From the NCBI GenBank assembly GCA_036172245.1, contig JAYWIR010000011.1, forward strand, positions 1,984,001 to 2,048,000: DNA of 64,000 nucleotides. Reading direction: 5' to 3'. The notes beneath the pieces were generated by a model that had not been told where the DNA came from, made no database searches, and saw only the letters and a list, made by a program, of their open reading frames with translations. The stretch comes from Raillietiella orientalis. Its lineage: Eukaryota. How positions within the stretch are numbered: position 1 is the stretch's first letter; every line of letters starts with the position of its first letter. Positions 1,582 to 62,945 of the stretch are shown one piece after another. The position numbers and the translations under genes are program-made.

Positions 1582-1704
1582 CTGGGGGAGCATCATCATC
1601 TCAGTGGAGCCCTCTGCCGGTGCGCGCGCATCCCGGAGCCCGCCCGCGCGCCGGGGGGGGGGGGGGGGGAGGAAGGGAGGGGAGAAGAGGGCGTCCTTCC
1701 TTAC

Positions 1705-1850
1705 CTGGCGCTCAGTGAGGCCCAGGAGCGTCGCCAGCTCCGTCTTGCGCCGGATGGTGATGTACCTGGTGTACCGAAACTCTTTCTCCAGCTCCAGCCG
1801 CTGGTGGTCGCTGTACACCACCCGGTACTTGTCCTTGGTACGGGTCTTCC
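1705..1850 (-). CDS. cad: caudal/Cdx coding exon 2 (homeodomain helices 1-2)
   Basis: Acceptor CAG at 1853-1851; encodes (G)[48 protein letters not shown], diagnostic of Cdx; donor CAG|GTAAGG. Confidence 0.97.
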
Positions 1851-14350: not shown

Positions 14351-14763
14351 GGTCCCGAAGGAGGCGCCTTCTGCGGGCGCGAGGACATGGGGCGTCGCCA
14401 CCCTCCTCCCCTCCCTGAAATTCCAAGAGGACGGAGAGGGAGGCACGCGGCGGCGGCACCTTTTCTCGTGGAGGTCGCCGCGTTCCCGAGGGAGATGCAG
14501 CCGCCGAAACGGAGGAGGCAGTCCTGAGTATGGACCCTCCAGCTGCAGGAGGAGCTCGCATAGGGTCCTTCGAGCAAGGCACCGAGTTGCCGAAAGCGGT
14601 GGGTCTCTCTTTCGCATCGGAGCGCCGTGATCCGTCGGCGTCCCATCGTCAGGAGAGATGATAGCTCTTTTCCTCCTGCTCTCGCTGAAGCCTTGGAGGG
14701 ATGGATGCCAGCATCAAAGCGAAGCGGTGAGGCGTCACGCCCCAAGAGGCACAGACATCCCGA
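14351..14763 (+). repeat. direct repeat, copy 1 (copy 2 at 45690-46103)
   Basis: The core gaaattccaagaggacggagagggaggcacgc...gaggcgtcacgc is shared with few mismatches. Confidence 0.92.
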
Positions 14764-14879
14764 GTTCCTCCTCCTTAGTGAGCCGTGGCAGACCGCGCGG
14801 TGATCCCGGAGGAGGAGAGGGGCGTTTGGGTGACCACGAACTTCTGGATGCTGCAGGTCTTTCTGGCTTGGGGCCTCGC

Positions 14880-15221: not shown

Positions 15222-17177
15222 GCGCAAGTCACTCCGGGAGAGACGCGCGGCGGGCACCGCCGACACCTCCCTCCGTGCCCTCAGCCTGCCCGGCTTGCAG
15301 ACGCAGGGAGTGCCAGATGCACTCCAGCAGTTGCGATCGAAACTTCCGAGCGAGCCCCATCCCATCACCCTATTTCCGAGCACATCGTGATCGAGGGTTG
15401 CCATCCTGCAGCACCTCACCCATGAGCCTCCCTTCGAGACGTGTGCGCCCAGACCCCGTTCGATTCCTCGCAAGATTCGGGGCAAGGATTGCCCGCAGCC
15501 TGCGACGCTTCCTCCACCCGTCCTGGTTGCCCGGGGACTGGTCCGCGAAGGGCGCTCAAGAATGAGGGGAAGGAAGGGTGGAAATGGCATCCCGCGTCGA
15601 GGCGAGCTCTTTAGCGACGTTCGAACCACCTCAGCATTTCCCCTCGGCGCCAGCTGGCTTCCTCCGTTGCGCCAGGGCTGCGCGCTTGAGGTCCAGCGTT
15701 GCCCGCCGGGGCCGAACGCAGCTCGCCTCCGCCCAAAGTCACGGCTGGGTAGGTGCGTACCCGGTAGCTTCGAGGTGTCCACCCGTCGAGGGCCCGTAGA
15801 CGCCCCGGCAGCGCCGGAGGCCCCATCCTCTCCGGCAGTTGGCTCCGAGCGTCTTCCTCCGACCGCCGACTCTCGCGGAACGCCGTCGCCCTCGCCGCAC
15901 CGAAGAGCCGATGGCGGCCGCGCGCGACGGCGCCCGGCCTCTTCCTGAGGGTGAGGGAGAAAGCGCACGGTGGGCCGGCCATCTCCCGCTCCTGTTGACG
16001 TCGCGCGCGCGCGCCGGTGCGCCTTCGAGCCACGCTGCCGGTGCGCCTTCGAGCGGACGGCGGCGCGCGCACAGTCGGCGTCGTTCTCGCGGTTGCCGCT
16101 GGCGCATGCATCCCCTCTTCGGCTCACTGACACGCACCCCCGGCTGGCAGCCACCTGAGCACGTGCGTGCCGCCCTCTGCAGGCAACTTTCTTCCGCTCC
16201 TTCTTCCGCGGGTTTCGTGGCCTCCTTCGCAACCTCCTTCGCAAGAAGGGGCGGGAAGCTGCGAGCACGTTCTGCGACTCGGTCCGTCCGCCTGCCTGCG
16301 CCTCGGCTCAGTACGGGGGTCGATCGACTCCCGTCCAGGAACGAAGCGCCGTCTTCGCGTTTCCGGAAGGGGGAGGGCGAGTTCCAATGTGGCTGGTGCC
16401 GTGCGCTCGCGCGCTTCGCAGGGTGCTCGCACCGTCGGTGCCGTGCGTGCGCCCACGGAACAGCGCTGCGTGCAGCAGCGGCAAGTGAGCTCGCTGGTGC
16501 CGCGCAGGCGCGCGCAGAGGGAATCGTCCTCCGAGAAGGTCTGCTTCCTTCGGTGTCAGCTGGAAGAAGCGGGAGCTCGAAAGGGTGCGACTTTGCCATG
16601 CCTCACCCGACCTTTCCAGACAAACCTTCAGCGGCTCTCGCCGTTGCGAAGCTCCAGCGAGTGCCGCTAGGGACGCCTCCCCCGATCGTAGCTTCCGCTG
16701 CTGCATCTTCGCGGAGTGCTCGGTTTCTCCTCGCTCCCGCGGGTGGAGGGACCGCGAGCTGGTCCGACTCTTGCCACCGCATCTCCCTTCCCTTGCCAAC
16801 CGGCTCAACTGTCGAAAGTCTTCTTCCGGCCCTGCGTGTGCGTGCGTTTGCGGCAGCGGTGGACAGCCGGAGAAGGCAAGCGGTCAGCAGGAGTGCCGTC
16901 AGGCAATCTGTGTTTTATTGCAACGCGTCCTGTTGCTCTGCTTTGCGAGGCGGTGTCCGGGAGAAGTCTCCAGCAGCCTTGCCGTCGAGTGGGGGAGGGT
17001 GGGAACACGTTTCGTGGTGTTTCGCGTGCGGACCCCGCGGCCAACACCCGCTCCTATGCTCGCCGGAAAGAAAGCTGCTAGGTCTCTCCGGCGACGCGCC
17101 TCGAGGGAGCTGCTGACTTTCGTACGCCCCCGACCTTTCGATCCGTGCTCCTGCTGGCTGTTTGCCTTGCAAGAATG
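15222..17177. repeat. long inverted repeat, left arm
   Basis: Reverse complement of 43731-45686. The 425-aa and 286-aa ORFs are identical in both arms; I found only two substitutions outside the outer ~40 bp. Confidence 0.97.
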
Positions 17178-17479
17178 GTTTCTTGTTGTGCTTTGCTGGA
17201 GCTTACTGAATGGAGCTGTGATGGCTGATAAAGGTGCTCTCATGAAACTGGCCCACAAGATGCAAGGGGTGGTCTAATGGAAAAGAAGTATTTGGAACTG
17301 GGTACTGGAGAGGAGATCGCGTCTTCTTGGGAGCATCTCCCCCCTCCCCTCCCCGATTCTAAAGGCTTAAAACGGGAAGTTTCATTCGCTTAGCCGTCGA
17401 GGCTGCGGTAGCAACTTTTACCTCTCCTGAAGAACCTCTCACGGGGGCGAGGGGAAGATGAAGACGTGCTCGCAGGCCC

Positions 17480-45686: not shown

Positions 45687-45689
45687 TCC

Positions 45690-46103
45690 GGTCCCAAAAG
45701 AAGCGCCTTTTGCTGGCGCGAGGACGTGGGGCGTCGCCGCCACCGCGCCACCCCCCCGAAATTCCAAGAGGACGGAGAGGGAGGCACGCGGCGGCGGCAC
45801 CTTTTCTCGTGGAGGTCGCCGCGTTCCCGAGGGAGATGCAGCCGCCGAAACGGAGGAGGCAGTCCTGAGTATGGACCCTCCAGCTGCAGGAGGAGCTCGC
45901 ATAGGGTCCTTCGAGCAAGGCACTGAGTTGCCGAAAGCGGTGGGTCTCTCTTTCGCATCGGGGCTCCGTGATCCGTCGGCGTCCCATCGTCGGGAGAGAT
46001 GATAGCTCTTTTCCTCCTGCTCTCGCTGAAGCCTTGGAGGGATGGATGCCAGCATCAAAGCGAAGCGGTGAGGCGTCACGCCTCAAGTGGCGAAGACATC
46101 CCG
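45690..46103 (+). repeat. direct repeat, copy 2 (of 14351-14763)
   Basis: The identical translated segment MIALFLLLSLKPWRDGCQHQSEAVRRHA occurs in both copies. Confidence 0.92.
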
Positions 46104-46189
46104 ATGTCTTTCTCGGTAGAGATGTCGGAAAGGAGAGAAGCAGACCTACGGGCGCTCCCAACGTTTAGGACCTTTCGAACGATCCATTC

Positions 46190-46850
46190 TCATTCCATCT
46201 CCAACTTTTTTTCCCAGCCGGGATGGGGCTCCGAGACCACAGCGGAACGTTGCAGGCGTGGTCTCTCCTCGCAGCTGCGAGATGGTCAGGAACGGCGTAT
46301 GCAGCTTCCCGTTTTCGCCTCGCCTCAGCTCTCCAGCGCTGCCCCGAGCAGATGGAAGCATTCGCGATCTGCCAACGGCTGGCGCGGCTGTCGGTACACG
46401 AACACAGAATCCACGTTCTCTTGATATCTTGGTTTCCGTGCTTTGGATGATAAGATCGGTGCCGAAACTGCGGCGACTGGGCTGGTCCGCTGCTACTGGA
46501 GGCGGCGATAGCAGCAGCGTACTATACGATCTCTCATTGCCTTGGAGGCAGTCCTTCCTTTTGTTCTAAACTGACATCCGATCGATTCTTGAGGAGGCAA
46601 AGTATGACAAAGTATTCTTCATCCGATCATGGAAGCTTTGTGAGTCACCAGCGCAGCAAGGGGTGCTCCTTATCCGGAGAGGACGAAAATTGGATCCAAC
46701 ACAGAAGATGACGATTATCCTTTGTGTTTTTCGGCGGCGTCTCGGAGAAGGCACGTGTTTGTAGAATCGAACACGTTTGAGAGAAGAAAGGGGAATCTCC
46801 TCTGGTCCCAGATGCTGTTGAGCCCTCATCTTAATGATGCAACCTTAAGA
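46190..46850 (+). mobile_element. decayed RTE-like LINE RT (domains 1-4)
   Basis: RDHSGTLQAWSLLAAAR (~RSDCGNYRGISLLA.AG), CPEQMEAF (~LPE.Q.GF), EAL*VTS / QQGVLL (~EAF.VT.GV.QG). Confidence 0.45.
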
Positions 46851-49800
46851 GTGAAGGAAATGCAGCGTGACTGAGACGCTGCATTTTCCTTCTGTTAGAG
46901 TTATTTTATTTATTTTTTTGCAGCAGCAGCAGATTCATTGGGAAACGAAAAAGAATGGCCAAGGCACACTCTCGCAAGGAGGATTGAAGCCCGAAAGGAA
47001 TTCATATCTTGGTCGATGCCCTAAAACTTTCCGCTCTGAATCGACAAGAACACTTCGATCATTGAGAGCTACACTACACCACCGGCTCATCGAATCATTT
47101 CGTATTATCCCTTTTGGTCCGTCATCTCCATGAGTTTCCACGAGCAAGAGGTTAAAAGAGAGGATGCCTCCGCGAATCGTTCTACACATGTTGACATCAG
47201 CAGTTTGAAGGAAAAAAAAAAAAAAAAGAGTAGACAGTGCTGCAAAATAGTAGCAACAAAAAACAACAAGAAGAACAAACAAACAAGCAAAAGCCAAAAA
47301 CAAAAAAAAAAATCCTTCTGCTTTCCATCTTGTTATGGCGACATTCCGATTTTTTGGTTCGAAGTTTAGCGAAGGTCTGAAGAAAGGAAACGACCACCAC
47401 TCTCCTCTCCCCATTAGCATGACATCTCACTCACTTGACCTGTGTCACACTCCACACCTGCGAAATTAGTGCACTGCACGCTCACCTCAAGCAAAGCAAA
47501 GCAAAAAACAGAAGAGGAGCCGGAAACCGGAAGAGGAACTGGATTGCTGCGTCTTGTCTTCTGGGAACTCAGCAGATGCTCGTGAAAGTTTCGGTATTGA
47601 AAAGTTTGTTTGTTTGTTTGTTTGTTTTAATTTTTGCACCGAGTGTTGAGCCCAACCTCCCTTGTGCAACGTGTAGTACTCATCTACATCTGCATTTAAA
47701 ATTGCTGTTTTTCCTTCTGGTAATACCTCATAAAACAACCTTTTCTTAGCCTCAAAATATTTGTTGGTGTCTCCATGATGATCCAGATGATCTTGTGAGA
47801 AATGAGTAAGAGACGCAACAGTCAGCCTGAGTCCACGGATTCTGTACGGACCAATTCCGTGGCTGGCTTGGGACTTCCAATGCTAAGTGCTCCACGTTCT
47901 TATCATTTAGATGACGCATTGTGGAATAAAGGTCGTCTGCCCGTAAGACTGTTATCCTTTCTATTCATCATTGATGCACATTCCAAGCGTTCCAACAGAC
48001 GCAGCATTGTAGGTGGTGTTTCGGCGGTTTCACCACCGAAGTTTTACCGTTTCCACCTCCCACAGCAAAAACATACTCGGGCTGTTCGAATTGACAAAAC
48101 CTGCTGACTACCTCACTGTTTATTTCTTGGGGGGTTCTTTTTTGTCATCCAAGTAGCATGGCACTGGGATCCAGTAAGAAGGATATGGATTCCATTACCA
48201 CATGTTGCGTACTCTTCACTCCTTTCCAGCACACAAACAAAAGGAATTTCTTGCTCGCTTGCTCTTCCCTGTCGACGAAATGGTACATCATGGTGGAAGG
48301 AAAAAAAGTCGCTGGTTCACCATCTGAATAATCTGCGTCGGCATGTCGGTCGCTTGAGGCACTGATGATTTATCGCTTGGTTATGGCGTGTTTGTTTGGT
48401 TGATTGACCCACTGACATGGTTGTTTGTTTATAGCAGTATCAAATGTTGAACGTTCAAATGATGTGTTCACATCAGTTGCCGTGCGCTCCCACCGAGAAG
48501 CAATCACCCTGCAGTGCAGGCAGGGAACACGCGCGAACCTGGATTTTTCTTCCTTTTTTTCTTTCGAAAGCTCGACCTCGAATCTTCCGGTAAACAGAGA
48601 GAGCTCCGCCGGAGAAAACACCGTGCGCACCGTGGAGACCCACGATTTTGCCACGTCGGGGTCGACGTCCGAAGAATGCCGGGGTACTCCTCCAGACGAC
48701 TGGGAAAAACGCTAAGAAAAAGCTAAGATGCGAACGAGGAGCACGGGTCAGCTTCCGCTCTCGATTGAAAGGAAGTCATTTTGACACTCTATCCATTGAA
48801 AACTTTTCCGCAGCAACCGAGCCTAGGTGTTAAATTAAAGCTTTATATGTAACAAACATCATTCGGCTGGCAGCGGTCGGTGAAGCCAAGGGAAAACATC
48901 GTTATTGCCAAATTATCACGAATAGTGTTCCTGGAGCCGAGAGCATAAGATGACACAAGAGAAGCGTCTGATCTAGCCCAAGAGCTCAGTCGTCAGCAGC
49001 AGGCGTCGGTGGACAAAGAAAGAACGGCTGATGGAAAGAAAAGTATAGACACGAAGCCACGGATCCGGAAGCTGGATGGATCTGAAACACCAACCGCATT
49101 CTCTCACAAGGGCTGTACCGACCCTGATAGAAAAACTCGCACTTCGGTTTCATCCAAACGCAGTTCTCGAAGAGGAATGAACGGGAAAATCTATAAGAGC
49201 TTCGAAACCTTCGGCTTAAAGACGAACGAACTCTTCCAAGATCTGTGACTGCTTCCAAGAGTCTTGCTCTCCTCCTCATAGATGAAAGCGTGGGGGAACT
49301 GGCCAGTGCTTTCAGTTGTGTCCAAAATTCCGCCCAGGTACGGTTTTGGATCTCGCAGAGATTTGGACAGTCTGAATAGGTGCTGTAGCATTCCTCAGTT
49401 CTCGGAACTCTGGTCAGAGTCGTGCACGCTGCAACGAATAGTGCAATGACATAAGTGACCACATAATTATAGACACCGTGTGCGTTTTGAAGAGGGATAT
49501 CTCGAAGTCCACATTTTCAACTTTAATATAACAATAAATAACTAATTAGTAATGGCTAATGGGAAATGGCTGGAAATTCGACAAACCACTCCAAACAGGA
49601 AAGCCGAAATTTTGGAAAGTCCGATAGAAAGTACGCCGGCGGATTCGATTTCGGAAACGGACTGCGATCGGTTCGATCAAAAAACCATCCAAGGAAGGAA
49701 AAGGCACGAAGGACATGCCCCTCGAAAAGAAGCAGATCTCGATCGTCCTTTTGGATTCGGGAGACTCTGGGACTCTTGGGAGTTGAACGGAATGTTGTGT

Positions 49801-52332
49801 TCCGTGAGCCTTCCACACCCTTAGAAAGCCAACCGGCAGAGTGAATGCAACCCGAAAAGCGTCTGACCTTTTTTCCTTTCCAATGGAATCTCAAGGTACG
49901 AAGCCAGGACTTCGTGGAGAGGGACTTTGGCGCGGTGGATTTGAAACTCTGAGGACGGGCGCGCCCCGCAGACGTCGGTCGACGCAGACGGAAAAGCGTT
50001 TGGATGCTTCACGTTGCCTTCCGCAGGATCAGGATTGCCAAGGTCTGAAGAAAAGGAGCACAGGAACGGCGCCCACGCGTGTTCTCGAGAGCGGGAAAGC
50101 GCGCTCGAAATTCGCTCCGAACGAAAACGGGAAAAGGGGGGGGAGGGGGAAAAAGGAAGCGAAGAACGCGCCTTGCTTGGCAGCCGGAGGAAGCGAACTT
50201 CAGCGACGTCCTCATGGATTAGAATGTAATGAGGAGGGATGAGAACTTCTTCCACCGTTGCAGGATTCCGTCTTTTCCTTTGCGATGGAGGTAACCTTGC
50301 CGGATGAAGCCGAGGAAACACGAAACGGGGATACGAAGCTGGCTGCGAACTCACTGGGGAAGCTGACTACCAATCTGAAGGATGAATCCATTGGCCCCAT
50401 CGTTCACTTGGCAAACCGTGCCACCAGGCTGCACGACCCCATCGGGAGAGCTGGAGACGTCGTGATGCTTGGATTAAGCTGCAGCGCTGGCGAGAGGTGA
50501 ACAGCAATCGAAAGGCATGAAGTTGCTCGTGGTTTCAAATTTGTCACTAAGGGGCCGTTTCCATCTCTTCTTGACAAACCATCCACGACGTGTAGATAAT
50601 GAATGGCTGCACTGTTCTGCGGAAACACGCAAAGCGATTCAGCACACCACGTGTTTTCGAGAATGCTTGTTGAGAAAAACAGCATCCCTCCGTCCCTATT
50701 CCAGATCTGTTTCTAGGGAGAAAGCGGTTTATTCCGGTGTGGATGCTCAGCTGTGATCTGGAGTCAGCTCCTGAAGAACCCAGCGTTGCGTGAATGGAAA
50801 TCAGCCCATAGGTACTAAATAGAGATAAGTGACTGGTGTAGGAGACGAAAGCTAGGGAAGTGTACATGAAGCGAACGTAAAAAAAAAAAAAAATAGTGAA
50901 AATGAGGATGAAAAAGCATCCTGTAAAACTTCAAACGAACACATTTAGAATGCTGGAAATCGAACCGAGATTTTGTGCAAAGTGTTGCGTGCTCCCGTCT
51001 TCAAGGATGCAACCCCGTCCAGGAAACAAATCCCTCCGTTCCGTATTGAAGTTCCAAGCATGTTTCAGTGGAATCTGCGGTTTAACGAGGATGCATCCCA
51101 AGGCACTCTGGAAAAGTGGACCTTAGATGCTCATTAAATTAATATGAGATTCCAATGCCACTGGTTTCTATCGATCGCTGGCAACAGCGATGTCCGTCGA
51201 TCAGGTGGCGAAGAGCAATTGAGACTGCCCGCCCATTTTTACTCGAATCGAAAAATGCTGACAAAAGAGGATCAGCGGGGGTCCAAATTCTGCAACAGCC
51301 TCCCTGTTTGACAGAACCTTCGAAAATAGAATGACGCAAGTTTAGCAGTTCCTTAAGAGAACTCATAAATCCTCGCCACATTTTTCATTGGCTGCACGAC
51401 TGCATACGATCCTTAGTATACACGAATGCGTGTACGTGTATGTGTGTGTGTGGAAACTGTTTACAAACATCAGCTGGCCCGCTTTGCACCATTTGAAATG
51501 AAAGTTGGAGCGACGGGGAGCGAGTGGGAACCTGGTGAAAGCAGCTGATTTTTTCCGACAACGGCAAAAGAAAACCGAAAGAGGCACGGAAGCAGCGGCC
51601 AGAACATCGTTTCGCTCTCAGATGGGGTAAATTGAAAAAGGAAAAAAGGGGTAAAGTGCGTTAACTGTGCACCCACAGATTCACAACAAACAGATCTGGC
51701 GAACTCGGAACGAATCGGACTCTCCCGTGACTGGGAGATCCGGCAGGAATCCCGAATTCCGTCTCCTGAGCAGCGCAAACAAAAGAGTATACGGTCGTCG
51801 GGATGCGGCACGAAGCCCCAGAACAGGAAGGAGACCGCAGGACACCAAACCAGATACGCGCGAGCTGAAGCTGGAATTTCACATGAGAACTCTCGGCATG
51901 CGATCATCGTGGGCGCAACCGCAGGTGCCACCCCACGGGATCCAGCAAGGAACTGCTCCGCATTCCCTGTGCATTTCCTCCTCGCTTCGGTCCTCCGCTC
52001 CCTGGAGAAGGAAACAGTCCCCCGGAACCCACAAGGAATTTGAGATCAACGCCGTGTTCCACGCCTGCAGGGTCATCATCTCCCACGACTCAACGTCTCT
52101 TACAAGAACAAAGTAAAAGGTCACCCTCTGAGACCTCAGCCGCAAAGTGGCACCTAATATGGAAGAAATGCACCTCTCTAAGGCAAGAACCAGTCCGAAA
52201 CCCTTCCCGGCGCAAAAAAGGCTTCTGGAAATTTCGCGTAGACGATCGCATTTCCAAAGAGGACAAAGGTTACATGCGATTGCTGTAAAACTTTATCACA
52301 CATGCCGCATACATCAAAATTGAGAACTTTCG

Positions 52333-52366
<34 letters not shown>

Positions 52367-55154
52367 AAAAGAAAAGAAAGCAAAAGAAATCGGATTTCTT
52401 TCTTTTTTTTTTTTTGCTTAAAAAAAAAAAAGCAGAAGGCCAAATCATCCCACGTTCATTCAGAACGAAAATAATCGTGCAGGACACATAGCTACGCACT
52501 CTTTGACCATCGAATGGCTGCTGGTTGTTGAACGGTGTAAGAATGACTCTCCGTAACTATTTTCAAGCATCTTTGGAGGCAGCCGGAAGAGAAGGAATCA
52601 CTCGCGTGTGCCATCTTCTTTCGCAGCGGAATACTACTTTCGGAATGCCCCTTCTTGTGCCGGTTTCCCGAACGCAACTTTCAGTGACAGCTAAATGGGA
52701 TGGAAACACGAAGAACGAAGAAGAAGAAGAAGAAGAAGAAAATGCTTCTGTACGTGATTTCGCTCGTTCAGTTCCGGTCACGGATGCTGATTCCCTAGCT
52801 GCCAAACGGAGGGGAAAAAACGGCCGATGCAGTTCCGCTTTTAAACGTCCTCGAAAACACGGATCGAAAAATTGTTAGGGCGTTGAGAGCGAAGAGTATT
52901 TGTGATTAAAATCGGTTGTTCAGGATGGAGATTTTGCAGCTGGAGCACAATGATGACGAAGGCGAAAACCACGCAGCCTGTGGATCTTGTAAGCAGGCGA
53001 TCCTGAGCCAGACAAAAGCATGCCTGGAGGATAAGCACGCTTTAAAACCAGTCACTGTAGGATTACCCATCTGTGAGTGAGGACCAAGCTGCAGACAGTA
53101 AATGTCCTTCTCGCATTGGGAAGACAGCGGGCATTTCCTAACAGTAATGTGTGGACATCCACAAGGTAGGATGCCGTGTAAGATGCAAGGAACCGAGACG
53201 TACGGATAGCTCCGAAATTCAGATTCGTTCCCCGTAGAGTGAAGCTGCAGCAGACGAAGAGGTCTTTAATCCCTTACGTCATGCCATGTCGGGAAACACA
53301 AGCACGTCGCTCCACGATCACGTCAGGCAATTGAAATTGGTACGTTCCCCGTGTGGAAGTAAGGAGAGGTCAAGAATGGAACGAAGTTGACTTCCTCGAG
53401 CAAACTGCAGTAACTTGTCGTTCCAGCAGAAGGGCGATGCGTCTCTCGAAGGTCCAGAAAAGGAGCGGAAGTAGATGGGAAGCAGCGTAAAAGTTTCACA
53501 GACAGAGGGACAGGTAAATCCCCCCTCCCCTCTCTCTCTCTCTCTCCATCTGCCTGTGAAGCAGCCAAGTTTGGAACACCGGATGATTCCTTGGCGAAAT
53601 AGGCAAGAAAGCTTCAAACGCCTTAGATCAGAAAACTAATAGAGTAGTTGGATTACTGACGATTTTCAACAGCGGCAGTCGATGCAACCGTGAGATTCCG
53701 TGTTCTAAATCTGTGCACTTGGCTAAGCTTCCGAGGACCTGCCTTTGAAGTAGGAGGCAGATCGAAAAGATCTGCCGTAGTGCTGCCTGCTAGGAGGAGC
53801 AAAGATCGGCTTCTCGAAAGGCACGAGACGTGCAGGCTGCAGCCGTGCAGGTGTGGAAGCTGGAGCAGGAGCAGATTCGTGGAACACGATGACGAAATCT
53901 CACGAAAGTGAAGGAATCGCGCTCCCTTCCACGCGGTGGGGTTGGTGGGGGAAGGGGTACACGAAAGGGCGAATCCCGATTTGGAGGTGCGATATGCTGG
54001 TGCTTTCGTGTCGTAGGAATCGCACGGTGAGCATCGCAAATTCGTCGGAAATCTCAACGTTCTCGAGAGCGGCGATCGGGAAACTGAGAGGTAACCATCC
54101 GTAACTTGAGGAAATCCAAGCAGAAGGAGAACTGAAAGGTAACGTCGAATGCTAGTAAGAGACACGTGAAACAGAAAACCAAGTGAGAAATTACCTGATT
54201 ACCAGTGCCAGGATTTTAGTGGCCTCTCTGGAACCAAGGTCACTGTGAAACAAGGCAGCACCATAAGCATGAACTAAGAACGCAAGATAAACTGATAACT
54301 TTGCACTGCATCCTTTTCAACTGCGAGATAAAAAAAAAAAAAAAAAAACCTGGAAGCAGGAAAAGAACTTCTAGATCAAACCCCAATACGCAGTAGAAGG
54401 CAAGCCGGGACACGGTCTCCATAACCGACTGCCGCAGAAATGATCCATAAGAGGCGGTTTATTGTAGAGATGAGGTGTTTGACGAGTATTTAATGAAATC
54501 AAAAGCTAACCAGTCAAGGATGCCTTTTTTTATTCTGGACGACCACCAAATTTGCTTTTATGATGATCGCAGCAAGGTATGTGTCCACTGTGTGGGAATC
54601 CGTGGATGACTTGACTGTGTACGTGGGGGCATTTCCGTCATTTTGGCCAACGGCTCAAAGCACGCCTTCTCCATCTTGAACAACTTGAAGTGAGGGAATT
54701 GGGGAAGCAATGAAGGGCGCAGTGGACGCTTCCTGACGGACTCTCTTGCAAATAGGAAAAAAAAAAATAAATACCGGTTGTAAAAACCGCGGCGTGGCCG
54801 CTGCACGAGCTTTCCTGGATGCTGCTCTTCGCCTGCCGGGAAAAGGCGCTCTCTCCCCTTTTCTAAATTCAGGGAAAATGAGGCTCGCGTTGTTTCTGGT
54901 TCTTTTCCTTTTGGCGACGCGTGGCCATTCGGTTGCGCCTCATCGCATGAGAAATTTGGGAGGGCAAGCAACGTGCCCTGCTACGTGTGTGGTTGTGCCA
55001 CCCAGCCGTAGGGAACACCCCAAAACTGAAAACGGGAAGCGAAGGCGCCGAGACTGAGCACCGAGCAGCCAGAAATCGAAAATGCGATTCCACCACTTCC
55101 ATTCCTCGCAAAAATTTTGCATATCTCTCAAAGTATTGTAATTGATGTTATACA

Positions 55155-55356
55155 TGAGTGAGGCGAGTCGGTAAGAGTCAAATGGGCTTGTTGATAGGGA
55201 AGTATTAGTTGTTGTTAGGGGGATGTTTATGATTTTTATTTTATATCAATGATTATGTAGATTTATAAATTTAGGTTTCATTATCTCAGAATCCTAATGG
55301 AATAAAATTTTTAATTTTCTGTTGAGTCATATCCCTGGGAATGTTGTAATTAGTAA
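55155..55356 (-). pseudogene. NUMT continuation (possible tRNA remnants and an atp6-like fragment)
   Basis: Same AT-rich skewed composition; PIWLLPTR resembles the ATP6 N-terminal WL.PSR motif. Confidence 0.35.
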
Positions 55357-55407
55357 GAGACGAATTTTAGGTTAGGTCGAAACTAATTGTGTTATCACTT
55401 TTGTCTA
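55357..55407 (-). pseudogene. trnR: NUMT: mitochondrial tRNA-Arg(UCG), apparently lacking the T-arm
   Basis: TAGACAA-AA-GTG ATAA CAC-A-ATTAG TTTCGAC CTAAC-CTAAAA-TTCGTCT directly abuts the nad3 incomplete stop. Confidence 0.65.
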
Positions 55408-55737
55408 AGAATATTCATGAGATGGAGCCGGTATGAAGTTCATATTTTAATCCTGAAATTAAAAAAAGAATGAATGACGTTAATGCAATGGCTGAGGGAA
55501 GTGTAAGGGATGGTGGTGGGAGTGGTAAAGGGAGGATAATAGCTAGTTCGATGTCGGAAATTAGGAAGATGATTGTAATTAGAAAAAATTGAATAGAGAA
55601 TGGGAAACGTTGTTTTTTGGGTCAAATCCGCATTCGAAGGGAGTTGAAGTATTGTAGTTAAATTGAGGTGTAATTTTAATGATTATTGCAAGAGAGATGA
55701 TGAGAATGATAACAAAAAGAGATGGTTAAAATAATAT
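55408..55737 (-). pseudogene. ND3: NUMT: mitochondrial NADH dehydrogenase subunit 3, frameshifted
   Basis: In the invertebrate mitochondrial code it reads STPFECGFDP / QRFPFSIQFFLITIIFLISDIELAIILPLP...LISGLKYELHTGSISWMF-T (TGA=Trp, incomplete stop). There is a frameshift in the A-run after DP, and a strong C/A strand skew. Confidence 0.92.
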
Positions 55738-56438
55738 TTCTTAATAGAAGAGACAAAATGGTATGCCTGCAGCCTAAGAGTTTCCAGACCTATGCCTTCC
55801 TCGAAAAAATACTTGCAGGACTGCCGTGACGACCTCTTTCTTACCACATTTTCTTCTTTCAATGCATTCCAAATGCCAGAATCTTTCGGTCCAAGAGTAC
55901 TTATCGTGAGTTACAGTGTGCTTTGATGTACCATACATGTCGAGAATGGTAACAAATACAATTTGCTATAGTAAGGAAAACAACAAAACGTTCGATAGTA
56001 AGGAATACAGCAAAAAAAAAAAGTGTGGTAATATAGTTGTAAGGAGCAGTTGAAAATACGTCGAAAATGTAGGATTTGCCAAACCACTCAAAATTTGGTT
56101 CCAACTTTTTAGAGTTCATATTTTTAAATGGTGCATGTATACATATATTATATTACGTAAGATAAAAAACACAGCTATATCACATACATGCGCGCACACA
56201 CACACACACATTCGGGAGCACGTTGGAACGCGAAATCGCCAAGTTGCTAGGCGTTTCCTGCAACACCAAATCCAGGAAGGGTTTGGTCCTGACCAAAGCC
56301 CTATGGGGGGCTGGACTGTGGCCCAACTTACAAATGGAACGAGCGGCACGCGTTCAGGAAATAATTTCATTTTACGAAAATTCCTGGCAGCCGCCCTTGG
56401 CATACCACTCAAGACAACTACTGCCCCGCGGCTAGTAC

Positions 56439-56677
56439 GGACAGGACGCCTGGCACGAAGTCCCCATCCCTGTCAAGGCAAGTTTTCGTCATCAACCACC
56501 TCCCCGCTTACTTTTTCTGAAGTCTGAGATTCGTGGGGCCCAGGAGCCCACGCGCGGCGCAGAGTCCGCTGATCTGTGCACACTTCTCCGGAAATGACAC
56601 AAACGCGGACGACATTCAGCAAACACGTCAGGCGGTCAGGCGCTCCCCCCCCCCCCCCCCCCACGTCCCTGCACGCC
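56439..56677 (-). pseudogene. diverged duplicate of ash1 61046-61271 (AWS/SET junction, including the 42-nt intron)
   Basis: Colinear match, e.g. ccccatccctgt, gcttactttttctgaagtc, ccaggagcccac, acattcagca. It has indels and has lost conserved residues. Confidence 0.93.
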
Positions 56678-58303
56678 CAACAAAAAGTACCACCACTTGG
56701 CGCGAAGAGAATTTACAAACCGAATGTTTGCAAATTCCACAGTGCGGTTCTGCTCGCTGCTTTGGTTGGAACAAACCTTTCCTGGATTCGGAGTTCCAGA
56801 AAACGCCTAATATCCTCCTACTATGTACTTCTTGCAGTTCCCTTTCCTGATGACGGTTGCAACAAAATCTCACGACTGCTTTAAATGTTGGTTCACTGAT
56901 TTCCCCTTGGGCCTTTCATAGATTCAGTCACCATGAAATTCTCAAGAGTTCCTTTTAATCCCCGGGCTGAAAAGTCTTCATAAGATCGCAAGTGGGAGAA
57001 GAAGACGAAAAAAAGAGAGAGAGAGAGAGAGAGTGACATTCCCTCCCCACTTATTCCTCTACCCTTGAGCAAGGGCAGTATCCTATTCAGAGAAGGAAAC
57101 TGAGACGGGATTATTGCTGGTTGAAAGCTCATTTCCAGACTTCTCTTGCCTTTCAACTCGCAAGCAATCAACGCTCTACTGTGTCTCATTCGTTCACTGC
57201 CTTCCACGCATGTACACGTGTATGTGAGTGTACGTGTGGAGAATGAGACGCGGTGACGTTTCGATGTCCAAGCACGCGCGTGGATACCTTTTTTCTTTGT
57301 CTTTTTTTCATATTCCCCTTTTCCTGCTGACGTCCCAGCTGGAAGGAAGTGTTCTCTTCGAATACACTAAAAACTATGCGATAGCGTTTCCAACTCCCCC
57401 CCCCCCTCGGGCGAGGCATCCGAGTGGGCGTCCACGGATGCTCATCTCGCTCATTCAGGTCCGCGGGTGTTCTTTCCCTGTTCGCATCCCAATGCATCAG
57501 ATGCAGGAAAAAACAAAACGACGGCCTTGCATTTCTTGTCCACGTCCCACGATCAAGTTATTGCAAAAAAATATCCTCAAAAAAATCCTGTGGGTTGACC
57601 GTTGCTGTGGTGTTCGCTTTTTGAACACCGAGGGTTCGATGCTGTTTGTACGGAGCTGCGAGTTTCGGATGGCGTGACCCTGCACGCGTGTCCATGCCCT
57701 CACTCTCTTCGTAAAGGAAAATCAATAATCTCGGAGCAATTTCTCAAAAGAAAAAAATACACAATAAGCAGCAATGCTGGGGAGAGCACTCCTTGCTAAG
57801 TTCCTGAAATCAGCAGAGTTTCAACAAGGTCATTTGCCACTAGGGATTTGTACAAGTTTATAGTATCAGGTCACATAAGATGAGCACGGCGCAAGAACCA
57901 CGTGATTCTTCTCGTCTCTGCCGGTACAAAAAAAAAAAAAAACTCCATGATGGAAATCCAACATCCACCGAGCATTGGCATACTTTCAAATTTAAGATGA
58001 CACAACAAAGATATTTACTCCCATTTTTCTTTCTTCTTTAAATAAGGGAAATGACACACAGCATTAATGGGTAATAATAATTGATCAAACATTCTGGCAA
58101 CGAACAACGTTTTCATTCACCTTGCTGAGGGACTCTCTTCAACATCCGCCATTAGTGTGAAACAAAACCACACATGCATCATATCTAACTTAATGACGGT
58201 CATCGATGGAGCTGAAAATCAAAACTCTTTTGTGCTGCTGATAATCTTTCGCAGGCGTAATCATTTCCTTATCTCAATTCCTCACTTGATTTTGCAAAAA
58301 TCT

Positions 58304-58309
58304 TTTATT
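58304..58309 (-). promoter_or_regulatory. candidate ash1 polyadenylation signal
   Basis: AATAAA on minus, ~155 nt after the stop codon. Confidence 0.45.
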
Positions 58310-58461
58310 CGTGATCAGTATGGAACGGTTTTGTTAAGCCAGAAGGTGAAAACAAAAAAAAAAAAAACAAAAAAAAAAAAACAAGTAGTAGTACTGTTGT
58401 ATTGCCAAAATTTGGCATCTACAAGGTTACAGTAGTAATCAGATTTACAGCTCCACATACA

Positions 58462-58758
58462 TCATTGAGTATCTCTGCAGGGCTTCGCACGGAAACGCCG
58501 ATTGTTCAAAAGATAGGAGAGATCAGCTTCAGGGTGTTCAGGCAAAAGTGACAAGAGCTTTTCCAAAATCCTATTCAGGCGTTGGCGTTTGGCCGGGTTC
58601 TGCAACTTGGGAAAAGTTGCATTTACAAGCAAATGCATCTTTACCTTCCCTGGCAAGACCTGGCTAACAGAAGTTGCTGGCTTCTTCTTCTGCCCATCAT
58701 GAGATTTGCGAGAATTCGAAACACATTTGGCACGGAATTCTTCAGGTACTTCATGAGG
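58462..58758 (-). CDS. ash1: ash1 last coding exon (may contain a 45-nt intron at 58600-58644)
   Basis: Acceptor TTAG; PHEVPEE...KRQRLNRILEKLL...DLSYLL...DTQ then TGA. Confidence 0.8.
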   Translation of the reverse strand, partial: PHEVPEEFRAKCVSNSRKSHDGQKKKPATSVSQVLPGKVKMHLLVNATFPKLQNPAKRQRLNRILEKLLSLLPEHPEADLSYLLNNRRFRAKPCRDTQ

Positions 58759-58804
58759 CTAACAAACAAATGCTTGCTTTCATTGAAGAACAATTCTTAC
58801 TTAC

Positions 58805-58877
58805 TGCATAGTTCCTGCATGGTCTCAGCCTCTCTGGAAAGCGTTCAAAAGCAAATGGCAAAGTGCAAATTGCATTT
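58805..58877 (-). CDS. ash1: ash1 exon (post-BAH)
   Basis: NAICTLPFAFERFPERLRPCRNYA; GT-AG flanks, phases consistent. Confidence 0.88.
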
Positions 58878-58929
58878 CTACATGTTAACAATAATATAAG
58901 CAATATGTATATCCATGCTCATCACCTAC

Positions 58930-59196
58930 TTGCTTTTCCCTATTTTGGCAAACATGCGGGCACAGCGATCCACTCTTAATTCACAAATGTAAACATGTTT
59001 CTCAATAGCACCAAGTGGACGACCTTTACAGAAGGTATTCAAATCCAGAACCCAGCAATGGCCAATTAATAATCTCAATGGGACAACTTCGTACAATGGA
59101 ACACGGACTACTTCTTGGTGAAAAAATTTTCTGGAGGGCTCATGAAATGTTTCATGTGGACGGAGGTAATGATGACCCAACGCAAATCGTTTACCT
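58930..59196 (-). CDS. ash1: ash1 exon (BAH domain)
   Basis: GKRFALGHHYLRPHETFHEPSRKFFHQEVVRVPLYEVVP...CWVLDLNTFCKGRP...YICELRVD. Confidence 0.95.
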
Positions 59197-59240
59197 CTGA
59201 TACATTTGATCACAAAAATTAATTAACAAATTCATTTTAC

Positions 59241-59385
59241 TGTTTTGTTATCCACAGCTTTTCTACACGATAAATATCAAAGTCGTTGGTATCCAAATCT
59301 CCTGTTTTATATCCCTCTCTAGCTTTTTCAACAGCAGCATCCAGCTGACTTGCAGGTGTATCTCGTAACACATACAAACAATCTC
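59241..59385 (-). CDS. ash1: ash1 exon (start of BAH)
   Basis: GDCLYVLRD...DIYRVEKLW; GT-AG flanks. Confidence 0.92.
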
Positions 59386-59427
59386 CTACAAACAGATGGG
59401 CTTATTGTTTATACAAAATTTTCAAAC

Positions 59428-59872
59428 CTTGGCAAATTTGCAATCCATCATCTCTGCACAGGCTTATGTGATAAAGAACATGTTCTGCTTCATGTGGTTC
59501 TTGACCTGGATATAATGGAGGAGATTCAGAAGGTTGTACAGGCATAAGAATGTCCAAATTGACACAGCGTGGGCTACATCTCTCACACACATATTTTTCT
59601 TCTGGATATGCTTGAGTATTGCCCCATATGCAAGAACAGTGCTGCCACACGTTACACTCATCGCACTGAATCATTAACCCATCTTCATGATATGAACGAC
59701 AGATACATCGGACTACATCCTTGGTACTGGTCACACTTCCTCGTTTGGCTGGATTCCATTCCCCAAAGGAAGGAGGAAACATGCCCAGAATTGTTTGCAA
59801 TGTCTCAGCATGTTCATTCCAAGATTCTTGGTAGACTTGTTTAAGAGATAAGAGATCAATACCAAGATGTAT
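59428..59872 (-). CDS. ash1: ash1 exon (PHD finger)
   Basis: DVVRCICRSYHEDGLMIQCDECNVWQHCSC...YVCERCSPR. Confidence 0.95.
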
Positions 59873-59913
59873 CTGCAGTAAAGGTGTAACAGGAAAATAT
59901 GCAACTGACTCAC

Positions 59914-60098
59914 CTGCCCACTGATAAATAGTCGGCACATATCCTTGTGAAACATATCCACAGAGAGATACTGACCAGTTAAAATGTTTTTTTCGATCGC
60001 CGTTAAAGTTATTGGCTCCAATTCTTTTTCATAGTATTGTGATGACGGCTTGGATATAGGTTGCATGAGACAAGCAGTGAGCAATGTTCCCTTTTCAT
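59914..60098 (-). CDS. ash1: ash1 exon (bromodomain)
   Basis: YYEKELEPITLTAIEKNILTGQYLSVDMFHKDMCRLF. Confidence 0.92.
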
Positions 60099-60141
60099 CT
60101 AATTCTTTTTAGAGATCTTCTAAAGAAATCTGCTAACTAAC

Positions 60142-60364
60142 CTTTAGCAGTGGCAATACATGAGTAAACCTTTTGGAGAATCTGGGCAAGCTTGGCAATT
60201 CTGCTCATTTCTGGATGATCCTCGGCTAAAGCCAATCTGCGAGTGCGTACAGACCGACTTGTATGCAAAGCATTGAAATGGATCAGAAAAGCTGCATCTC
60301 CATCTGGGGTACGTCCACTTGAAGGTGCCACTTGTTGATTAAGCCTCTTTCTCGCCAATTTCAC
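60142..60364 (-). CDS. ash1: ash1 exon (pre-bromodomain)
   Basis: RSVRTRRLALAEDHPEMSRIAKLAQIL, a conserved Ash1 segment. Confidence 0.9.
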
Positions 60365-60414
60365 CTGCCCAAACATACTGTCTTCTCTACTTGTATGTTT
60401 TCTCATCATCATAC

Positions 60415-60842
60415 CTTTTCCAAATTTCTTAAAAGAAAGCAGCATCTTTCCCTGACAAACAACAGCTGCTGTTGAGTCAAAGGACGCAATTTTGCATTTT
60501 TAGTTCCTTTGTCAAAACAATCACAACTTGACTTGCTACACTTTCCTTGCCTAGGAAGTTTAGGAGGAGGTTTCTCCTGATGCTTCACAATGGCATCTCT
60601 ATGGGAAGCTTTACCAGGACGCATTATTTGGGATTTGCCACCAATAACACCACGACAATTGGTGCTCCCACATTTGCAAACTTGTCCTTCTGCAGAATTA
60701 AATAAAGCAAAATTGTAATCATATCCTAGTTCAACACCAGCAGGAATATCTTCTTTGGCATATAAAACCATGCGGAAGAGGCCACCAACCATCCACTTTT
60801 GCATTTCACAATTGGGTTCACACGAATGATTAACAAACCTTG
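60415..60842 (-). CDS. ash1: ash1 exon (C-terminal half of SET, post-SET)
   Basis: [17 protein letters not shown]...ELGYDYNF...[17 protein letters not shown]. Confidence 0.97.
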
Positions 60843-60889
60843 CTGAAAGCAAGCACATGTACAACTCTTTCTCTAAACATAGTCACTAC

Positions 60890-61076
60890 CTTTCCCACCC
60901 ATGCGATGAGCATCGATAACCAAGCCACTATCCAACTGAAGACAATAATGATGATTGTCATGCAGGTACCTATCCTGCATACGATTCTTGAATTCTCGTT
61001 CGCTGATTACTTCCCCAACATATTCCATTATAAAATCCCCTGCTTGGATAGGACGCCTAGTACGAATTCCCCATCC
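60890..61076 (-). CDS. ash1: ash1 exon (N-terminal half of SET)
   Basis: [33 protein letters not shown]...[20 protein letters not shown]. Confidence 0.97.
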
Positions 61077-61118
61077 CTGTTAAGGTAATTTTTTGTGATC
61101 AACTACCTCATTGCTTAC

Positions 61119-61339
61119 TTTTTCTGAAGTCATAAATTTCTGGAGTCCAGGAGCCCACTCATGGCGCTGAATTCGCTGATTTGTGCACATTTCTCCAGAA
61201 GGACACAAATGTGGACAACATTCAGCATACATCAGGCGGTTCAGGCACTCTTCCCCACATCCCTGCATGCCTGAGTCTGGTTTTTTACAATTACATGCAT
61301 GCATTTCTTGGAGCACAGGCTTGACATCATAATATACAT
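61119..61339 (-). CDS. ash1: ash1 exon (AWS domain)
   Basis: NVYYDVKP...CNCKKP...CGEECLNRLMYAECCPHLCPSGEMCTNQRIQRHEW. Confidence 0.96.
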
Positions 61340-61383
61340 CTGACAAATGGTGAAATTAAGCACACCACTATCTGTGCACTTAC

Positions 61384-61589
61384 TTGTGCGTATTTTTTTG
61401 TAATTCCATGAAGGAACCACTTCAGGCCGATAGAGCATGCGGTTTTTCTGCAACCACCAGATATCATATGGTAAAACAAAATCCACACGCCTCTGACGAG
61501 CCCATCTGTTGCAATAACAAGGAGGAGGTAGGAGAGAAGACTGATTTGTTGGCAACACAAATTTATGGGTACACTGTTTTGTTCTTGAT
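61384..61589 (-). CDS. ash1: ash1 exon (pre-AWS, FxLP motif)
   Basis: LLPPPCYC..W.RQRRVDFVLPYDIWW...WNYKKIRT. Confidence 0.93.
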
Positions 61590-61639
61590 CTAAAAAAACA
61601 TAAATGTGCAAACTATGTAATTCTTTCCTAGATACCTAC

Positions 61640-61744
61640 TCCTCTTGCTTGAATGTATCTGACATAAGACCCGCTGACAAATACTTTTTGCGAGGAAGTT
61701 TTGACAGAATAAGTGCTGGTTCCTCATTATCTTCAGATGAAAAA
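61640..61744 (-). CDS. ash1: ash1 exon
   Basis: PRKKYLSAGLMSDTFK (Ash1 KKYL.AGL.S motif); phases consistent. Confidence 0.88.
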
Positions 61745-61848
61745 CTAAGAATCAAAATCTTAGAAAAAATACGCAAAAACTATTATCTACACCATTTAAT
61801 AAATGTATGATATCACAATATATTATGTTCTTTCATTTAACTGTTTAC

Positions 61849-62945
61849 CTCATCAATGACATCCTTTCATCTTCTGCTTCTACTTTGCTAAGAGATGAAT
61901 CTATTTCAATTTCAGAATTATTGCAATTCACTTCTGATGCTTTTTTATGAGTTCTGTTCCTTCGAACAGTAGGAAATCCTGTTCTGTTGATACGTTTTCG
62001 TCTCTTTGGTTTAACTTCTGCACCATTATTGGATAATGGCTTAATGGCACTTTTATTAGTTTCACAAGGTGCTTTTGCTAAGTTTTCATTATTCTGTACT
62101 ACAGAATCATTCACTTCTGATTTCTGATGCTTTTTTGCTTCTGATGAAATATTTTTTTGTACGTTTAGTTTTCTTTTCAGCTGATCTCGAAGCCTAAGTT
62201 TTTTATAAATTAACTTTTCTTCAACCAATTCCTCTTTGTCATCTTTAGAAATATCCATTTCATTGCTACTTTCCTTATTTGTTATCTTTGGCTTCAGGCA
62301 CACATCTTCTGATTTGATCGAGTTTTCGCAATTTCTCCATAAATTCTGATATGAATTAGAAAAACTAGAGAAATTAGGTGAGTGACTAGGTAAAAATCTA
62401 TGGTTTAAGTTAGAGACGTTGACTTTGTTTTCACTGATGAGAGGAGGTACAAGAGGTTGCGTAATTTTAGAATTTTGAGAATTGGACATCATAAAAGCAA
62501 AAGAGGACTGAATGAGGTTGACAGCAGGTAAGTTAAAAATTGTTGACTGCAACAGATTTCCTTGGTTTTTAAGACTCACTTGTTTCTGTGAATTGGAATG
62601 TAAAAATATAGTTGAAATAACAGTATCTGCTTTATTAGAGATAGATGAAATTTTAGAATCAAGAAAGCTTTGTTTGAAGTGAAACTTTTCTGGACGAATA
62701 TTCAAAGTTTTGTTTCGAGGAAATTTGTCATTGAAGCCTGCTTTGGAAAAATTTTTAGCATTTCGAATACGATGCTGCGCATCCAACTTTTCTCCATGTT
62801 CAGGATGCTGCTGACTAGAAATATTTTCAACAGATAAGTTGTTGATGAGAGCACCATTAACAAAAGTAGTACTCATGGAGTTGATATGTCTGTGTCTTTT
62901 CTTCAAAGGAAGCCTCTGTTCGATAACCTCAACTTTATCAATGCA
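61849..62945 (-). CDS. ash1: ash1 large exon; the gene probably continues 5' beyond the window
   Basis: Acceptor TTTTTTAG at 62947-62946; LPLKKRH and KRRKRINRTGFP motifs; donor AG|GTAAAC. All 13 exons join in frame to give 1292 aa. Confidence 0.88.

Follow-up and report, generated by a model that had tools for sequence, protein, structure and literature searches.

We analysed a 64,000-nucleotide stretch of the genome of Raillietiella orientalis (assembly GCA_036172245.1, contig JAYWIR010000011.1, positions 1,984,001 to 2,048,000), referred to below as the window and numbered from its first letter. Near its right-hand end lies the gene ash1 (ASH1L), whose body, as recognised by its AWS, SET, post-SET, PHD and BAH domains, occupies positions 58808–62945 on the reverse strand. 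The gene was traced from 61692 down to 58808 by tblastn with three full-length orthologues. A 239-bp genomic piece of ash1 has been copied to positions 56439–56677, 4.6 kb downstream of its source and just outside the CpG-depleted gene body. Since copying, this fragment has undergone about 39 substitutions, nearly all of them from A or T to G or C and at equal rates in all classes of site, while the silent sites of the parent have barely moved.

An unprocessed fragment of ash1

Comparison of the window with itself by BLASTN matched positions 56439–56651 to 61046–61256 with 80.8% identity over 214 columns (E = 2e-50), and this was the only match that linked the ash1 region with the rest of the window. 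Local alignment extended it to 56439–56677 against 61046–61271, limits already given in a preliminary description of the sequence, with 225 aligned pairs (186 identical and 39 different) and 15 gap columns. The copy lies 4607 bp from its source, about 2.1 kb past the last recognisable ash1 exon, and has the same reverse-strand orientation as the gene.

The parental segment (61046–61271, reverse strand) consists of the end of the AWS exon (61271–61119), a 42-nt intron (61118–61077) and the start of the SET exon (61076–61046). Translation of the parental exon gave an AWS domain that matched human ASH1L (PDB 3OPE) with E = 1.8e-22. The intron contains an in-frame stop codon and is unusually short for an animal.

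All three parts are represented in the copy, likewise on the reverse strand. Positions 56512–56677 derive from the 3' 153 nt of the AWS exon, with the frame broken by insertions and deletions (indels) of +11, +2, +1 and −1. The entire 42-nt intron (GTAAGC...ACAG) is found at 56470–56511, with eight A/T to G/C changes and one change that leaves the GC content unaltered, and both splice-site dinucleotides are intact, the GT...AG of the source being preserved at 56511–56470. The first 31 nt of the SET exon, at 56439–56469, now read GWGLRARRPV, where the parent starts GWGIRT. As the four indels break the frame, the source protein can no longer be encoded. With its frame broken and invariant cysteines replaced (see below), the copy is non-functional.

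The retained intron and the absence of poly(A) identify the copy as unprocessed and made at the level of DNA, not as a retrocopy. A processed retropseudogene was also considered and rejected: in addition to the retained intron and the missing poly(A), the copy has no flanking direct repeat or target-site duplication. No other ash1-derived piece was found in the window by tblastn with eight ash1 exon translations or by sensitive blastn, and neither these searches nor transition-tolerant alignment revealed ash1 homology past the 239 bp. In the transition-tolerant local alignments, the flanks (56100–56438 and 56678–57000) scored at best 48–56 against ash1 and other sequences, values inside or hardly exceeding the range of shuffled controls (43–57), and the top alignments of the left flank fell on a CA microsatellite.

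The changes are almost exclusively from A/T to G/C

In the following, W denotes A or T and S denotes G or C, and changes are counted from parent to copy. The 39 differences comprise 33 W>S changes, one S>W change and five that are GC-neutral. Given 120 W sites and 105 S sites, the probability of a 33:1 skew is 2e-8 (binomial). On the forward strand, the W>S changes are T>C (19), A>G (9), T>G (4) and A>C (1), so that 28 of the 33 are transitions and five are transversions. New CpG dinucleotides are created by 13 of the 33. The copy has a GC content of 62.8%, 16 points above the 46.5% of the parental segment, and a ratio of observed to expected CpG (CpG o/e) of 0.86 compared to 0.42. The changes are evenly distributed along the copy (variance/mean 0.56). 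The preliminary description had arrived at about 33, 1 and 5 changes of the three classes, mostly T>C and A>G and many creating CpG, and the present counts agree with it on each of these points.

The copy also contains a run of 18 C residues at 56645–56662 of the forward strand (G18 on the gene-sense strand). As had been stated, it derives from the parental ctcttcccc, in this alignment by two T>C changes and 11 inserted bases.

In other respects, the fragment resembles known unprocessed pseudogene fragments: the exon–intron–exon order is kept, poly(A) is absent, the source is near and the frame is destroyed. Unprocessed gene copies in animals are expected to drift towards AT, whereas the ash1 copy has gained its 16 points of GC.

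Most replacement changes arose in the copy

The direction of the changes was assessed by aligning both sequences with ASH1 proteins of other species, as the preliminary description had proposed for ash1. The orthologue set consisted of 120 of 224 matches, of which 107 could be used for the AWS exon and 119 for the SET exon. The closest ASH1 among these matches is 57% identical over the SET region, and the best matches with a named source are those of a mayfly and an amphipod. By class, 23 of the 39 differences are nonsynonymous (18 W>S, one S>W and four neutral), seven are synonymous (all W>S) and nine lie in the intron (eight W>S and one neutral).

At 10 of the nonsynonymous differences (seven W>S, one S>W, two neutral), at least 90% of the orthologues share the parental residue, and none or one that of the copy. 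At nine others (seven W>S, two neutral), the parental residue is clearly the commoner. Consequently, 19 of the 23 nonsynonymous differences were assigned to the copy, namely 14 W>S, one S>W and four neutral. Thus, at least 14 of the W>S changes, together with the single S>W change, arose in the copy.

Among these changes are two replacements of Cys by Arg, at 61259 and 61247 (TGT/TGC>CGT/CGC), where all 102 of 102 orthologues have Cys, and the replacement of His by Arg in the RHEW motif at 61162 (CAT>CGT), where 104 of 106 have His; each creates a CpG. Other conserved residues that have been replaced are an N (107/107) and an F (105/106). In all, five copy-derived changes create CpG at conserved residues. 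The orthologues thus indicate that the CpG-creating changes at the conserved Cys and His residues were made in the copy and do not reflect loss of CpG from the gene. The preliminary description had argued that many of the changes destroy conserved residues and must therefore have arisen in the copy. This holds for the 19 assigned differences, including the two cysteines and the RHEW histidine, but not for the Cys of the ECCP motif at 61217, which is found in 0 of 106 orthologues.

Changes are independent of site function, and the parent has not moved

W>S transitions affect 15 of 55 nonsynonymous, seven of 37 synonymous and six of 28 intron sites; the rate in the copy is independent of the former function of the site. 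Pooled silent sites differ no more than replacement sites (13/65 compared to 15/55, p = 0.39), which indicates that there has been little change in the gene's own lineage. A W>S change in that lineage would appear as a silent site with S in the parent and W in the copy. This was seen at none of about 65 silent sites with ancestral W, compared to 15 of 55 sites changed in the copy (p = 2.5e-6). The 95% bounds are an upper limit of 4.5% for silent sites of the parent and a lower limit of 16% for the copy. The copy is therefore not only biased but accelerated, its rate being at least about 3.5 times that of the silent sites of ash1 if those are neutral. The suggestion that the neighbouring gene body escapes the process is borne out by this comparison, and also by the CpG o/e, which is 0.44–0.52 in the ash1 body and 0.9–1.0 everywhere below 58 kb.

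Expressed per site, the rates in the copy are 0.275 for W>S and 0.0095 for S>W, a 29-fold ratio. These rates imply an equilibrium GC content (GC*) of 0.97 (lower bound 0.78). If the skew is due to a fixation bias, with mutation 1–3 fold AT-biased, the strength (B) of that bias would be about 3.4–4.5. An excess of W>S changes (33:1 overall, 14:1 among those polarised by orthologues), indifference to site function (15/55, 7/37 and 6/28) and acceleration over neighbouring sites (0/≈65 compared to 15/55, assuming neutral silent sites in ash1) are among the features by which a hotspot like that of mouse Fxy is recognised, and these three are seen in the ash1 copy.

A Wolbachia murE fragment also moved towards GC

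A second piece of dead DNA lies 8.5 kb from the ash1 copy. Among the open reading frames (ORFs) of the 46–59 kb interval, a Mur-ligase domain was detected at 47490–47882 on the reverse strand (Pfam, E = 3.5e-14). DNA alignment delimited a decayed murE fragment of the Wolbachia type at 47661–48136 (reverse strand), 67–76% identical to five Wolbachia and Rickettsiales loci. Its best relatives in a prokaryote genome collection were Wolbachia and a metagenome-assembled genome (MAG) of Rickettsiales, at 68–70% amino-acid identity, and compared to the five relatives it contains frameshifting indels. Adjoining it at 48132–48194 (reverse strand) is a short scrap of a multi-copy Wolbachia repeat. By these matches, 47661–48194 is identified as a decayed nuclear Wolbachia transfer (nuwt), AT-rich at birth, situated between the genes caudal (described below) and ash1. 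It resembles other nuclear Wolbachia transfers in being a decayed, frameshifted piece with Wolbachia repeat sequence adjoining it; unlike them, it serves here only to show the direction of change. DNA-level searches, from which very decayed pieces could escape, found no other Wolbachia DNA at 46000–59000 and, with three Wolbachia genomes, none at 1–47000.

The GC content of the murE fragment is 44.7%, compared to 35.8–39.4% in the five relatives. At the 311 sites that are identical in all five, the nuwt has 31 W>S, nine S>W and seven neutral changes, or 0.150 W>S and 0.087 S>W per site (GC* 0.63). When agreement of at least four of the five relatives was accepted, there were 53 W>S and 12 S>W changes (GC* 0.69, p = 0.006). 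Nonsynonymous changes at invariant sites, which most likely post-date the transfer, numbered 22 W>S and seven S>W. As a control, the private changes of the five living bacteria were pooled; they comprised 35 W>S and 27 S>W (GC* 0.26–0.57), significantly different from the nuwt (Fisher p = 0.035).

The GC-ward force is thus real but patchy. The per-site ratio of W>S to S>W is 1.7–2.2-fold in the nuwt, compared to 29-fold in the ash1 copy. If the rate ratio of the nuwt applied to the ash1 copy, the chance of at least 33 W>S changes among 34 would be 1.7e-5, or 1.7e-4 by the four-of-five rule. A difference of this kind between the two sequences fits a patchy, hotspot-like force and not a uniform mutational bias. 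The preliminary description had named AT-ward decay of other dead sequences as evidence that would count against its proposal; the nuwt, with 31 W>S to nine S>W, is one further case in which such decay did not occur. The proposal of a strong GC-driving process in intergenic DNA is upheld in so far as both sequences moved towards GC, but the process is not uniform (GC* 0.63–0.69 compared to 0.97).

Composition of the surrounding DNA

The window falls into three parts. Positions 1–46 kb are GC-rich (53–70% GC, CpG o/e ≈0.7–1.24); the middle part, 46–58 kb, which holds both the nuwt and the ash1 copy, has a mean of 47% GC and a CpG o/e of ≈0.96; and the part with the ash1 body, 58–64 kb, has 29–40% GC, a CpG o/e of 0.44–0.52 and an excess of TpG and CpA (1.2–1.4). 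A low CpG o/e combined with an excess of TpG and CpA is the usual signature of germline methylation, a link also made for honeybee genes (PMC4406589). The step in CpG o/e at ≈58 kb, from 0.9–1.0 below it to 0.44–0.52 in the ash1 body, is therefore likely to mark the edge of germline gene-body methylation, as judged from base composition.

The ash1 copy sits within a narrow GC peak (52–62% GC) at 56200–56800, to the right of which the GC content is 42–53%. This peak matches a 562-bp unit enclosed by the arms of an inverted repeat (E = 4e-9). The left arm (52 nt, 56248–56299, forward strand) is about 85% identical to the right arm (56759–56809, reverse strand). Weaker similarity is found to 56334 for the left arm and to 56727 for the right, and both arms have TA at their outer edge. 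To the left of the unit is an AT-rich block (55100–56200) with a G-rich skew in its left half, and the DNA to the left of this block has 47–50% GC.

The GC-rich part contains the exons of a caudal/CDX-type homeobox gene at 1366–2034 (reverse strand), with the homeodomain encoded in two parts (≈1702–1836 and from 1578 downwards) that are separated by an intron of ≈120 nt and 74% GC. The best PDB match of the homeodomain is CDX1 (7Q3O, E = 3e-23). The GC content of third codon positions (GC3) is 0.91 and 0.90 in the two caudal exon parts, compared to 0.28–0.39 in five exon segments of ash1 some 57 kb away. Of the 86 ORFs of at least 200 amino acids in the window, 84 lie in 1–46.2 kb, where the Homeodomain was the sole Pfam match. 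A nest of transposons was considered as the nature of the GC-rich 1–46 kb and rejected, since none of these 84 ORFs had a Pfam match to a transposon or reverse transcriptase.

Local GC-biased gene conversion as the favoured explanation

With moderate confidence, we attribute the pattern to strong local GC-biased gene conversion (gBGC) in unmethylated DNA beside the CpG-depleted ash1 body. This reading is suggested by the combination of features described above: the changes are almost purely W>S, blind to function, accelerated, mostly transitions and rich in new CpGs, and they spare the CpG-depleted gene and are unevenly distributed within less than 10 kb. In outline, the ash1 copy would have landed beside a presumably germline-methylated gene body, in an unmethylated interval active in recombination. 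There, a fixation bias for G and C alleles would multiply the fixation of W>S changes and suppress that of S>W changes. The ash1 body would be spared because recombination is lower in methylated gene bodies, whose CpGs are lost by deamination. The nuwt could have been moved towards GC by this force too, acting less strongly or for a different length of time, and the force may plausibly have built the 60–70% GC domain that holds caudal. The suggestion in the preliminary description that a GC drive explains the composition of the whole window is likewise plausible. When the conversion fractions of the copy were applied backwards to the surrounding DNA (47–53% GC), a starting GC content of 27–36% was obtained, which resembles that of the AT-rich DNA at 62–64 kb and is in keeping with the favoured reading.

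A number of observations weigh against this reading or limit its reach. The evidence base is two short sequences, the ash1 copy and the nuwt, in one window. At 61268, 61217, 61210 and 61190, all W>S differences, the orthologues have the residue of the copy at least as often as that of the parent, so that a change in the gene is possible at these four sites. The 15 silent and intron W>S changes are polarised only indirectly, the nearest ASH1 among the matches listed being 57% identical. Silent sites of ash1, those of the 42-nt intron among them, may be under constraint, and the acceleration would then be overestimated. Some S>W changes of the nuwt may have occurred in the donor bacterium before transfer, in which case the contrast between the two recorders would be overstated. 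Counted on the gene-sense strand, A>G changes affect 19 of 64 sites and T>C changes nine of 56, a difference that is not significant (p = 0.088), where gBGC predicts symmetry. The AT-rich block, which is unique and 1.1 kb long with 27–38% GC, ends only ≈50 bp to the left of the inverted repeat. Since such a block adjoins the GC peak, either the GC drive is very local or the block is younger, possibly an insertion. The same back-calculation, carried out on this block with its overall 34% GC, gave an impossible 9%, which leads to the same two alternatives. Finally, the sequence of a single genome does not separate fixation bias from mutation bias.

Alternative explanations

This last point applies to a bias of mutation or repair specific to one compartment of the genome, in which new mutations would themselves be frequent and A/T to G/C biased in unmethylated intergenic and developmental-gene DNA, without the involvement of meiotic recombination, while methylated gene bodies would have an AT bias. 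Such a bias would give the same pattern in all site classes of the copy. It would also account for the coincidence of the CpG step at ≈58 kb with the change in behaviour, for the GC-ward movement of the nuwt in the same compartment and for the GC3 of 0.90–0.91 in the caudal exons. However, the two recorders lie only 8.5 kb apart, both in DNA with normal CpG, and yet have ratios of 29-fold and 1.7–2.2-fold (p = 2e-5 to 2e-4), and a block of 27–38% GC directly adjoins the GC peak. We know of no animal germline in which the spontaneous spectrum has a W>S bias. In the honeybee, mutation is described as strongly AT-biased by Wallberg et al. (PMC4406589). We regard this alternative as unlikely. A targeted form of it, in which mutation or repair converts A:T to G:C in very local patches of unmethylated chromatin, perhaps seeded by the inverted repeat and without gene conversion, appears quite unlikely. 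If it did operate, a quarter of the A/T sites would have been rewritten while silent sites 4.6 kb away were left unchanged, and it would be an undescribed route to domes of 60–70% GC at developmental genes such as caudal in an AT-rich arthropod genome.

The inverted repeat also raises the question of whether the fragment was captured by a mobile element with terminal inverted repeats (TIRs) and TA flanks, and acquired its GC-ward changes elsewhere, for example in a GC-rich hot region, before insertion near ash1. The 52-nt arms are ≈85% alike with an E value of 4e-9, bracket the fragment and have TA at both outer edges, although no target duplication of greater length than this TA is present. 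Moreover, the 52–62% GC peak matches the 562-bp unit and falls off on both sides, and ash1 homology does not continue past the 239 bp. On the other hand, no second copy of the arms or of the interior exists within the window, a site 4.6 kb from the source and in the same orientation is an improbable landing place, and the parts of the unit not derived from ash1 have 46–53% GC, like the surrounding 46–58 kb. We consider this very unlikely, and it would in any case alter the place where the bias acted, not its existence. A single burst of hypermutation at the time of copying, either by error-prone repair with mispairing at A:T or by copying of ADAR-edited (A-to-I) RNA back into DNA, is highly improbable. 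The copy could be young, the parent having no silent change; A>G and T>C account for 28 of the 39 changes, and on the sense strand the former outnumber the latter 2:1; and the intron is as compatible with pre-mRNA as with DNA. Nevertheless, both strands have been hit (nine T>C), there are five W>S transversions and four indels in addition, poly(A) and a target-site duplication are lacking, and a single event at the copy cannot explain a GC-ward nuwt 8.5 kb away. Changing 27% of W sites is also far above any known polymerase error rate. ADAR editing in particular was rejected: a 5' G is not depleted (4/17 compared to 15/47, p = 0.76), a 3' G is not enriched (2/15), and T>C changes and transversions are present. 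Lastly, the polarity might be reversed, with the copy keeping an older GC- and CpG-rich state from which a methylated gene had decayed towards AT. The ash1 body is indeed depleted in CpG and rich in TpG and CpA (o/e 0.47 and 1.30), at five of the 15 silent W>S differences the copy has a CpG, and the four replacement sites listed above agree with such a history. As the main cause, it is refuted by the 19 of 23 replacement differences that are derived in the copy, five of them creating CpG at conserved residues, by the silent sites, which diverge no more than the replacement sites, and by the TG/CA contexts, in which changes show no significant excess (11/38 compared to 17/82, p = 0.36), and we give it almost no weight.

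Comparison to known systems

The phenomenon is of a known kind, found in honeybee and in mouse Fxy, and the ash1 copy is a further instance of it, not a new kind. In mouse, Fxy (Mid1) spans the pseudoautosomal boundary, and its relocated part has acquired 28 replacement substitutions, all of them W>S, compared to none in the other part (PMC2631073). Like the relocated part of Fxy, which accelerated almost purely by W>S changes and without regard to codon function, the ash1 copy has 33 of 39 changes that are W>S, equal rates of replacement and silent change, and a source with no silent W>S change. However, Fxy is a working gene with measured high recombination, whereas the ash1 copy is a dead 239-bp arthropod fragment, 4.6 kb from its source, that is known from sequence alone. 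Hotspots of W>S change in human genes and human accelerated regions (HARs) (Berglund et al. 2009, PMC2631073) are similar in forming nearly pure clusters of less than 1 kb to some kb, with neighbours a few kb away unaffected. They are located in functional exons, where selection had to be argued away, an ambiguity that does not arise with a pseudogene fragment.

In the honeybee, gBGC was estimated at B = 5.71, with a predicted GC* of ≈0.96 (Wallberg et al. 2015, PMC4406589), compared to ≈3.4–4.5 and 0.97 in the ash1 copy. In that species, W>S transitions contribute most of the bias and new CpGs are favoured (PMC4406589); correspondingly, 28 of the 33 W>S changes in the copy are transitions and 13 create CpG. 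Germline-methylated, low-CpG genes have reduced crossover in the honeybee (PMC4406589), a parallel to the escape of the CpG-depleted ash1. The honeybee results are based on allele frequencies from 30 genomes and a linkage disequilibrium (LD) map, compared to one paralogue pair and one nuwt in the present work. The CpG o/e outside genes is 1.6 in the honeybee and ≈1.0 here, and the organism is not a bee. gBGC has also been discussed for 150 holometabolous insects in a paper whose references include one on 'runaway GC evolution in gerbils' (PMC10978632).

What the locus contributes is a polarised recorder that has an internal control and a source close by, together with a second recorder in the same window. 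At 46% GC, the ash1 fragment was AT-rich when it arose; its source still lies nearby, and the direction of its changes can be assigned. Together with the nuwt, it provides direct evidence that neutral DNA born AT-rich has been driven towards GC, with GC* of 0.63–0.97, unevenly over less than 10 kb. An arthropod other than a bee can thus show a W>S drive as strong as that of the honeybee or of Fxy. Gene fragments, nuwts and small nuclear RNA (snRNA) pseudogenes are ready recorders with which the drive could be mapped genome-wide. In practice, dating by divergence and dN/dS tests would be badly misled in such regions.

Other features of the window

A match to U4 snRNA lies at 57061–57184 on the forward strand, ≈400 bp from the ash1 copy (Rfam RF00015, 54.8 bits compared to a gathering score of 46). 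The U-run of the Sm site is deleted and several stem pairs are broken, and the element is probably a U4 pseudogene, judging by these defects. At highly conserved positions, it differs from the Rfam consensus by about four W>S, two S>W and one neutral change; as this consensus represents all eukaryotes and not the U4 of the species itself, the changes are not polarisable.

The GC-rich part contains a large inverted repeat of 1959 bp and 99.5% identity (15222–17180 compared to 45686–43728), with arms 26.5 kb apart. Abutting it is a direct repeat of 434 bp and 93% identity (14350–14781 compared to 45689–46122). The outer end of this duplicated block, at ≈46.1 kb, coincides with the sharp drop in GC content from 67% to 47%. 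Eleven runs of at least 12 G or C residues are found in the GC-rich sequence at 1–35 kb, among them a G17 at 1653–1669 in the caudal intron; elsewhere in the window, the C18 run of the ash1 copy is the only one. Such long G/C runs may have formed as a side effect of the drive towards GC, in combination with slippage.

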